Assembly (NCBI GenBank): GCA_046753845.1
Contig: JBHHUP010000005.1
Location: 1-51,473, forward strand
DNA length: 51,473 nt
Source of the DNA: Thermodesulfobacteriota bacterium
GTDB lineage: Bacteria > Desulfobacterota > GWC2-55-46 > JADFVP01
Reading direction: 5' to 3'
Part shown: in pieces, positions 13,522 to 14,522 of the stretch
Numbering within the stretch: position 1 is the stretch's first letter
How the letters are laid out: every line of letters starts with the position of its first letter
Program-made: the position numbers and the translations under genes
The notes under the pieces: model-generated
The model's database searches: none
Told to the model about the DNA's origin: nothing
The model's input: only the letters and a program-made list of their open reading frames with translations

Positions 13522-13732
13522 CCTACAAAACCTCCTTTAATCAAAGCCGCATAAAAAAGGCCGCCCATAAGGCGCGCCTGCCTTCATGAGACCCTGAACA
13601 AGTTCGTACTTCCAAGGCATAGATGATCAAAGAAGAGACCATTCCCATAATATCAGAAACATGGAAAAGACCCTTCTTTTGGACAAAAAACCCCCTAAAT
13701 CCACCTGATAATCACCAAAAGGCCTAACAAAC

Positions 13733-14134
13733 CTATTTTTTCACCACCGGTCCGCCGGCCTTTACCCAAGCCGCATAACCGCCGTCCAGTGCCTTTACTC
13801 TTCTAAAACCCGCCTTCATGAGATAGAGCGCAGCACCTGCGCTCGATGCCTCATGGGGTCACGTACAGTAAGTGACTATCTCCGTGCCCATGGGGAGCTC
13901 AAACATACGGGCCTCAAGGTCATCGGGGGCAATGCGTTTATCACCCTTTATCCGTGTATCCATGGCCTCATAAGCACCCTTTGAACGGATATCAAGTATG
14001 AGTATCTTCTTTCCGGCCTTCATATCGGCCATCACTTCCTCAGGAGTAACCCTTACAACGTCCTGAATGGTAACGGCGGAGGCGAAGGTAGAGATACCAA
14101 ATACAAGAACAAGAGCGAGTATTATTTTTTTCAT
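13733..14134 (-). CDS. Exported rhodanese-domain selenoprotein (133 aa; Sec at codon 92, UGA 13859-13861)
   Basis: Signal peptide MKKIILALVLVFGISTFASA; rhodanese motifs ILDIR and IKG. Reading through TGA gives EIVTYCT-U-PHEASSAGAALYLMKAGFRRVKALDGGYAAWVKAGGPVVKK-TAG, which completes the rhodanese fold. A SECIS-like hairpin lies directly 3' of the UGA. Confidence 0.88.
13817..13855 (-). promoter_or_regulatory. Bacterial SECIS element
   Basis: mRNA after UGA: CCC CAUGAG GCAUC GAGCGCAG GUG CUGCGCUC UAU CUCAUG. Lower stem 6 bp, internal loop, upper stem 8 bp, G-starting apical loop about 21-22 nt from the UGA. Confidence 0.82.
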
Positions 14135-14273
14135 ATATTAATGCCTCCTTCGAATTATAATGGCACATTATCACACAATTGTCCTTAAAAATCAAAGGGC
14201 CTGAGAGTACATTTAGAGGTTACTGCTTATTTTATATGTGGTATGAGGTGAGAAAATCCTCTATAATACGGAG

Positions 14274-14522
14274 ATGGAAAAAATAGATGCAAAAAGAAGG
14301 CTTGACGCCAGAGGCATGTCGTGCCCAATGCCATCGGTAAAGACGGCCCTTGAACTTGAGGGTATGCAGACGGGCGAGGTCTTAGAGGTCATTACTGACG
14401 ACCCTGTATCAAAGACAGACCTGCCCATCTGGGCGCGGGCCTCGGGCAACACCGTACTCGCCATAAGCGAAGAGGCCCTTGAGGGCCGAGACTCCATTAC
14501 CATTTATGTGCAGAAGGGGTAG
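14274..14522 (+). CDS. TusA/SirA-family sulfur carrier protein
   Basis: LDARGMSCPMP, GEVLEVITDDP.S..DLP.W; 82 aa. Confidence 0.92.
   Translation: MEKIDAKRRLDARGMSCPMPSVKTALELEGMQTGEVLEVITDDPVSKTDLPIWARASGNTVLAISEEALEGRDSITIYVQKG

Follow-up and report, generated by a model that had tools for sequence, protein, structure and literature searches.

A predicted exported rhodanese selenoprotein behind an in-frame UGA in a Thermodesulfobacteriota genome

In a metagenome-assembled genome (MAG) of a Thermodesulfobacteriota bacterium (assembly GCA_046753845.1), a short open reading frame (ORF) on the minus strand of contig JBHHUP010000005.1 breaks off at a TGA within what looks like a rhodanese active-site loop, raising the question of whether this TGA is a stop codon or is read as selenocysteine (Sec, U). 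The whole stretch of DNA analyzed here, 51,473 nucleotides (nt), is referred to as the window. The annotated ORF of 91 codons (14134-13859) starts with ATG at 14134, and its last residues, EIVTYCT, are followed by TGA at 13861-13859; the same frame then stays open for exactly 41 codons, PHEASSAGAALYLMKAGFRRVKALDGGYAAWVKAGGPVVKK, up to a TAG at 13735-13733. Translation of the full coding sequence (13733-14134, 133 codons plus TAG) with TGA read as U yielded a protein with a predicted signal peptide and one rhodanese domain, and the match to the Pfam model Rhodanese (PF00581) ran across the TGA, covering residues 31-125 (13760-14044) at 47.5 bits versus a cutoff of 22.2. A model's reading of the sequence alone (here, the original prediction) had described both the 91-residue ORF ending at TGA in the rhodanese loop and its continuation for 41 codons with a rhodanese C terminus, and both held at exactly these positions. 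We regard the locus as one gene encoding a 133-amino-acid selenoprotein, an exported single rhodanese domain with Sec at the UGA, with a probability of roughly 0.88. The gene structure, the conserved UGA, the core of a selenocysteine insertion sequence (SECIS), the Cys-containing homologues, the rhodanese fold, and a hydrophobic N-terminal extension are directly supported, and we infer Sec insertion, the cleavage and localization of the product, its substrate, and its partners.

The TGA itself was recovered repeatedly. Four sequencing runs of a single hydrothermal-vent metagenome sample gave Logan contigs that cover positions 13600-14300 with zero differing letters; this sample may be the source of the window, so the agreement is not independent and excludes only an error private to the MAG assembly. 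The stronger evidence therefore came from other genomes. A six-frame search of same-order species genomes gave a match in 66 of 77, and 83 of the 112 listed matches, by hand count and including all of the best 56, contained an in-frame TGA, a figure that counts any in-frame TGA, with the identity of the site compared in the 30 loci that were read (L076-L105). All 30 carried TGA at this site, 29 as C-T-TGA and one as TGA-T-TGA; among them, L076 is the window's own locus and L082 ends at a contig end 22 codons past the TGA. The exceptional orthologue (L098:1501-1884; G030:C3:186754-187137) reads IDLY-TGA-T-TGA-PDEYTS, that is, a U-x-U form with two Sec codons. The sequencing error with which the original prediction had reckoned can be set aside, since the Logan contigs agree and all 30 loci keep the TGA. 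As that prediction had also anticipated, annotation truncates the gene. Of the 22 matches obtained from about 5.8 billion proteins, 21, including the window's own entry, were stored at 91 to 99 amino acids and ended in (V/I)TYCT; two of these bear the NCBI name "rhodanese-like domain-containing protein." A search of a representative set (1.84 billion) retrieved the generic rhodanese superfamily (4332 matches at E ≤ 0.001, four of them at ≤ 1e-30) and, beyond the earlier results, only further truncated entries of 93 to 96 amino acids.

Outside the 30 same-order loci, 19 more distant homologous loci were collected from genome and metagenome collections. In 14 of them, nine from MAGs of Acidobacteriota (most of these Pyrinomonadaceae) and five on metagenome contigs, the loop reads (I/V)(T/S/A)YCTCPHEAS, and the very position of the UGA is occupied by Cys; a Thermodesulfobacteriota MAG (L017, 80% identity) had TGA at the site, and four very remote rhodaneses had unrelated loops. 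Another homologue (P0023) reads YCSCP. In an alignment of 27 protein sequences, C90 (codon TGT, 13865-13867) was invariant and position 92 (codon TGA, 13859-13861) was always U or C, so that the aligned homologues hold either TGA or Cys at the site, the pattern looked for at the outset. Moreover, a phmmer alignment to Escherichia coli GlpE (1gmx) placed position 92 onto the Cys of CYHGNSS, which we take to be the catalytic Cys of GlpE, with C90-T91 forming a two-residue insertion before it; the TGA lies not merely in the active-site loop, as first described, but at the catalytic-Cys position by this alignment. AlphaFold2 run on the alignment gave a predicted local distance difference test score (pLDDT) of 90.3 and a predicted template modeling score (pTM) of 0.80, with the loop C90-E95 lying between a strand (85-89) and a helix (96-107), and with an N-terminal helix (2-16) of low pLDDT standing apart from the domain. 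The top matches listed by Foldseek against the PDB were all of rhodanese fold, comprising single-domain rhodaneses, rhodanese-domain fusions, and Cdc25-type phosphatases.

The codons beyond the TGA were compared in 28 full orthologues (378 pairs), leaving out L082 because of the contig end and L098 because of its UxU motif. Across the 38 post-TGA codons, these pairs showed 4210 differences at first, 2941 at second, and 7041 at third codon positions. The differing codons were synonymous in 4159 cases and nonsynonymous in 5209, versus 1206 and 8195 in the +1 frame, while the 38 codons upstream of the TGA gave 3754 and 6510. In addition, the mean amino acid identity to the window protein was 70% downstream of the TGA and 60% upstream of it. 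Considering the codon-position pattern, the synonymous counts, and these identities, the region after the UGA is, as judged from sequence comparison, coding and under purifying selection, with a constraint at least equal to that of the upstream part.

The RNA following the UGA was consistent with a bacterial SECIS element. An 81-nt segment that includes the UGA and the sequence following it folded into a two-tier hairpin of -29.5 kcal/mol (z score, -2.28; 5 of 200 shuffles equally good), which as folded in the window extends over 13807-13860 (minus strand). Its conserved core (13826-13844) consists of an 8-bp upper stem, GAGCGCAG/CUGCGCUC, and an apical loop, GUG (13836-13834), that begins 22 nt past the UGA. 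In the published model, bacterial SECIS elements have a loop of 3 to 9 nt, an upper stem of 4 to 16 bp, a distance of 16 to 37 nt from UGA to loop, and a minimum free energy of ≤ -7.5 kcal/mol (PMC13188914, legend of Fig. 2), with G in the first two loop positions, in most cases as GG or GU (PMC13188914); the window hairpin, with its GUG loop, upper stem of 8 bp, distance of 22 nt, and energy of -26 to -29.5 kcal/mol, lies within all four ranges. The 28 orthologues could be aligned without gaps over 75 nt, from 9 nt ahead of the TGA to 63 nt beyond it, and RNAalifold retained the upper stem only. This helix (columns 27-34 with 38-45; window positions 13844-13826) was paired in 93.3% of cells; at pair 33:39, 13 sequences have A-U and 13 have C-G, and at pair 27:45, 26 have G-C and 2 have C-G. 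When the structure was taken as a whole, none of 500 shuffles matched the observed covariation score or percentage paired, and sliding the partners by 1 to 3 columns left 40 to 52% of cells paired versus 77.5% observed. Because pairs 27:45, 30:42, and 33:39 link third codon positions with third codon positions, the compensatory changes leave the encoded amino acids unaltered on either side of the stem. Third positions were also more conserved inside the core than outside it (mean majority fraction, 0.84 versus 0.60), and two columns, 36 (the loop U, at the wobble position of a codon for Gly or Arg) and 42 (a G, wobble position of an Ala codon), were invariant in 28 of 28 sequences. The hairpin proposed in the original prediction, with its loop at about 21 nt, is thus in accordance with the published model, shows compensatory changes, and has its loop at 22 nt.

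As a separate observation on this part of the locus, the contig graph branched exactly at the conserved SECIS core (13816-13852) for three of the four runs of the vent sample. A second contig there, of 428 nt and a depth of 10 to 15, matched the window over these roughly 30 nt only and diverged afterwards, which suggests that a related organism occurs alongside and has a rhodanese gene of its own.

The N terminus, MKKIILALVLVFGISTFASA followed by VTIQD, combines a basic MKK start, a 14-residue hydrophobic core, and an A-S-A end, with a mean Kyte-Doolittle hydropathy of 3.06 over 12 residues. Hydropathy and orthologue comparison point to a Sec-type (secretion) signal peptide comprising codons 1-20 (14075-14134, minus strand), which would be cleaved after A-S-A. 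All 20 exported-type orthologues examined had a 12-residue stretch with a mean hydropathy of 2.3 to 3.3 within the first 35 residues, whereas a paralogue of cytoplasmic type and the Acidobacteriota Cys forms begin at the domain and reach ≤ 1.3. Export across the cytoplasmic membrane is therefore a well-supported prediction, and the signal peptide first proposed for the window protein has its likeness in all 20 of these orthologues.

The window's MAG (1.55 Mb, 95 contigs, 66% complete) encodes selA (532 bits versus a cutoff of 268). Among relatives, four same-genus genomes (96 to 100% complete) and one same-family genome were searched for the remaining Sec machinery, and selB, selD, and tRNA-Sec were above curated cutoffs in all five. 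The selD of each of the five has one in-frame TGA and is hence a selenoprotein gene itself (for instance, G062:C5:9470-10390 and G064:C37:12510-13430 in congeners, loci L108 and L109), so that the congeners would make a Sec-containing selenophosphate synthetase. In congeners, selB and selD are neighbors on one contig, with selD directly after selB.

The kind of protein is already known; what is new is a divergent lineage missed by a curated model, together with explicit evidence for the SECIS and the export signal. Rhodanese selenoproteins with a CxU motif are catalogued in two reviews (PMC13188914, PMC9312934), in keeping with the statement in the original prediction that rhodanese-like selenoproteins had been reported, and the window protein, with C90-T91-U92 inside the Pfam match, fits the class described in PMC13188914 as "form 3" (rhodanese domain plus CxU). 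The best NCBIfam match was NF041203 ("rhodanese_LYCAU, rhodanese-related (seleno)protein") with 91.8 bits. The window protein shares with this family the single rhodanese domain, the C-x-U in the active-site loop, and a length of about 126 to 135 amino acids, and the model aligns from window residue 10, so that it takes in the hydrophobic N terminus; the window motif, in contrast, is V-T-Y-C-T-U rather than the L-Y-C-A-U of the model name. Because its score lies below the curated cutoff of 115 bits, the window protein is, on model score, a divergent relative in the homologous group and not a member by NCBI's rule, and annotation pipelines that depend on the cutoff will not rescue the UGA. Four more orthologues from the same order were scored: L089 (122 bits) and L100 (116.4 bits) lay above the cutoff, and L103 (103.6) and L086 (89.5) lay below it, as did L096 (88.8) and the window's paralogue (105.1). 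In Deltaproteobacteria living as Olavius symbionts, eight rhodanese-related selenoprotein genes, the UxU form included, have been described (PMC1976440). The family idea is the same there, and the same-order orthologue L098 reads L-Y-U-T-U-P-D-E, whereas the window gene has Cys rather than Sec at the first position.

Two rhodaneses of known structure resemble the window protein without its Sec. E. coli GlpE, a thiosulfate sulfurtransferase, has the same single-domain rhodanese fold (phmmer E value, 7.7e-6; Foldseek TM score, 0.65 to 0.78), and its catalytic loop CYHGNSS aligns with UPHEASS of the window, but GlpE is a cytoplasmic, Cys-based enzyme without the two-residue C-T insertion ahead of the catalytic residue. 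Sud of Wolinella succinogenes (1qxn, under the deposited name "sulfide dehydrogenase"), a periplasmic polysulfide-sulfur transferase, is likewise an exported single-domain rhodanese from an anaerobic sulfur-metabolizing bacterium and gave a weak but significant match over residues 23-130 (E value, 3.3e-4); it differs in relying on a single Cys, with neither Sec nor a vicinal Cys. Genes for a polysulfide or thiosulfate reductase were not seen adjoining the window gene. Among the listed results of our literature search there was no paper on an exported Sec-rhodanese, although supplementary tables of selenoproteome surveys may hold more; the main text of PMC13188914 uses neither the term "signal peptide" nor "periplasm," and the available parts of PMC13188914 and PMC9312934 report no biochemical characterization of a member of the CxU rhodanese family.

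Rhodaneses form a persulfide on their catalytic Cys. Given this chemistry, the Sec at the catalytic position, and the Cys two residues before it, we infer that the window protein is an exported acceptor and donor of sulfane sulfur that may cycle through a C90-U92 selenenylsulfide. In the proposed sequence of events, translation would start from the ATG at 14134, the SECIS hairpin (core 13844-13826, loop GUG) would recruit SelB with Sec-tRNA(Sec) at the UGA (13861-13859), and Sec would be inserted there, with translation going on to the TAG at 13735. The signal peptide would then direct the product across the cytoplasmic membrane, and the mature protein of ~113 amino acids would be a single rhodanese domain whose loop starts with C90-T91-U92, placing U92 at the catalytic-cysteine position. 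Polysulfide or thiosulfate could donate sulfane sulfur to the U92 selenolate, forming a Se-S(n) adduct, and the sulfur would either pass to a periplasmic acceptor or be released as sulfide when Cys90 resolves the adduct into a selenenylsulfide. Sulfur transfer or reduction as the role of the protein is a tentative assignment, to which we give somewhat less than even odds; the sulfur/selenium transferase or redox function put forward in the original prediction is likewise tentative. As a precedent, periplasmic polysulfide handling with selenium has recently been described for the Geobacter multiheme selenoenzyme MccSep (PMC13510729).

Several observations weigh against the reading of the locus as an exported selenoprotein. 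The two lower helices of the hairpin were poorly conserved, being paired in only 61% and 75% of cells; the z score of the single-sequence fold is modest; and an Rfam scan of 13650-14000 gave no family match at E ≤ 10, a null result that is uninformative because bacterial SECIS elements are poorly covered in Rfam. The shortfall against the NF041203 cutoff belongs here as well, as does the basis of the export call, namely a hydropathy heuristic and N-terminally shorter homologues rather than a dedicated predictor, and the gene neighborhood (described below) offers no consistent functional partner. Furthermore, no selB, selD, or tRNA-Sec was above cutoff in the window's own 66%-complete MAG, in which ARAGORN found only 24 tRNA genes, none of them for Sec. 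Given this incompleteness and the small number of tRNA genes, the absence is weak counterevidence, yet the case for the machinery in this organism rests on its relatives. The adjacency of selB and selD in congeners suggests that one missing contig could account for the absence of both. Hence, the selABCD genes called for by the original prediction were found in part in the MAG itself (selA) and for the rest in the five relatives, while selB, selD, and tRNA-Sec were not found in the MAG.

If the TGA were a genuine stop, the locus would be a decaying pseudogene or would encode a truncated protein of 91 amino acids, with the downstream frame a remnant. Gene callers and public databases treat the locus in this way, as the 91- to 99-residue entries attest, and the missing selB, selD, and tRNA-Sec would agree with it. 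However, a remnant would not hold an open frame and 70% identity across 28 genomes with change falling mostly on third positions, the TGA is kept at one site in all 30 loci, and the 91-residue product would be without the rest of the active-site loop and two helices of the rhodanese fold; we consider a genuine stop extremely improbable. Only slightly less improbable is that the UGA is read through outside the Sec pathway, by near-cognate suppression with Trp or Cys or by a local or global reassignment of TGA. Sec insertion is, after all, deduced from sequence and the machinery in the MAG is incomplete, but TGA terminates 231 of 781 long ORFs in the window's genome, so that there is no general reassignment; homologues hold at the site Cys, the usual counterpart of Sec; the hairpin is conserved, with an invariant G-U loop at SECIS distance; and the congeners have complete Sec machinery.

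Two further alternatives accept the selenoprotein and concern its location and its role. The hydrophobic segment may be an uncleaved membrane anchor, or the protein may not be exported in soluble periplasmic form, a reading that we hold to be unlikely but that deserves more weight than the two above. It draws on the heuristic nature of the signal peptide call, on the modeling of residues 2-16 as one helix by AlphaFold2, and on the poor A-x-A motifs of some orthologues (e.g., PAIGAG and LHATG), while the classic K-K start, the 14-residue core, and the A-S-A followed by V-T in the window protein speak against it; the domain would in any case face the periplasm either way. The other alternative is that the exported C-x-U rhodanese is mainly a signaling or redox-sensing accessory of a two-component system rather than a carrier of sulfur in metabolism. 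A hybrid sensor kinase (PAS, HisKA, HATPase_c, Response_reg) lies directly upstream on the same strand in 14 of the 19 more distant loci among the 30 of the order (L087-L095, L097-L099, L101, and L102), with 16 to about 120 nt between the kinase end and the rhodanese selenoprotein gene. Such a kinase is absent, however, from the neighborhood of the window gene, which, like its 10 closest loci, stands between aroC and tusA with no kinase nearby; no close orthologue of it was found in the incomplete genome (best, 28% identity), and adjacency alone is no proof of interaction. A signaling role is accordingly rather improbable. A more specific version, slightly less probable still, would have the C-T-U rhodanese sense or relay sulfane sulfur in the periplasm by means of its selenium rather than simply carry sulfur, the selenenylsulfide or selenolate state reporting polysulfide or redox status to the upstream hybrid PAS histidine kinase, with the gene uncoupled from the kinase and moved next to tusA in the window's genus; if true, this would be the first signaling role of a bacterial selenoprotein.

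The main value of reading the locus as a selenoprotein gene lies in the correction of annotation: a Thermodesulfobacteriota clade has one or two rhodanese selenoprotein genes that are stored as stubs of 91 to 99 amino acids, and the curated model NF041203 misses this lineage by about 23 bits. Selenoproteome counts and sulfur-metabolism reconstructions of hydrothermal-vent sulfur bacteria consequently undercount these genes. The finding opens no new kind of system, but a rhodanese that is exported and carries Sec in place of the catalytic Cys would be a good candidate for periplasmic handling of polysulfide or thiosulfate.

Regarding the surroundings of the gene, its divergent neighbor (14274-14522, plus strand) encodes a TusA-family sulfur carrier (PF01206, 79.7 bits), whose best NCBIfam match was YedF, "sulfurtransferase-like selenium metabolism protein" (49.5 bits versus a cutoff of 79), with TusA proper at 35.6. 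This tusA adjoins the rhodanese gene in only 11 of the 30 same-order loci, the closest ones, and in none of the other 19 of these 30. TusA was rejected as a functional partner, the adjacency being found only where synteny extends over the whole neighborhood (aroC, PNP, Slp). On the minus strand, a Shine-Dalgarno-like AAGGAGG (14144-14150) precedes the ATG of the rhodanese gene by 9 nt, and farther upstream a promoter-like TTGATT-17-GATAAT with a TG extension (14167-14195) is a weak candidate by consensus match only (1 site versus 1.3 expected in shuffles).

A second C-T-U rhodanese gene was present in the same genome (G000:C18:16962-17294; locus L113:1963-2295, plus strand), encoding 110 amino acids with the motif AYCTUTDEHSS. 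This paralogue has no N-terminal hydrophobic segment and is therefore probably cytoplasmic. The core GCGCC-CGUGC-GGCG also follows its UGA, and its hairpin folded alone showed no significant structure (z score, +1.65). Beyond the rhodaneses, a crude genome-wide scan for Cys-flanked TGA codons yielded 162 candidates, mostly spurious, of which three, on contigs C36, C62, and C15, were examined; the matches to Molybdopterin (PF00384, three) and FlpD (PF02662, one) in the window's genome had no in-frame TGA. The candidate at C36:422-1372 was rejected, being moaE followed by an in-frame moaB. On C62, a radical-SAM/ArsM (arsenite-methyltransferase-like) fusion (G000:C62:2643-4577, minus strand; locus L116) has a TGA in SGCC-TGA-DPLY, 30 codons before the next stop; the related NCBIfam models are selenoprotein families, yet their matches stop before the TGA, and the status of this frame as a selenoprotein gene is undecided. 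Finally, a PrdB-like frame of 267 codons on C15 (G000:C15:8332-9132; locus L115) with one in-frame TGA (LTPG-U-GVCN) matched models for D-proline reductase PrdB/selenoprotein B across the TGA (TIGR04483, 186 bits versus a cutoff of 300; TIGR01918, 65.2 bits versus a cutoff of 65.45) and is probably another selenoprotein gene of this genome.

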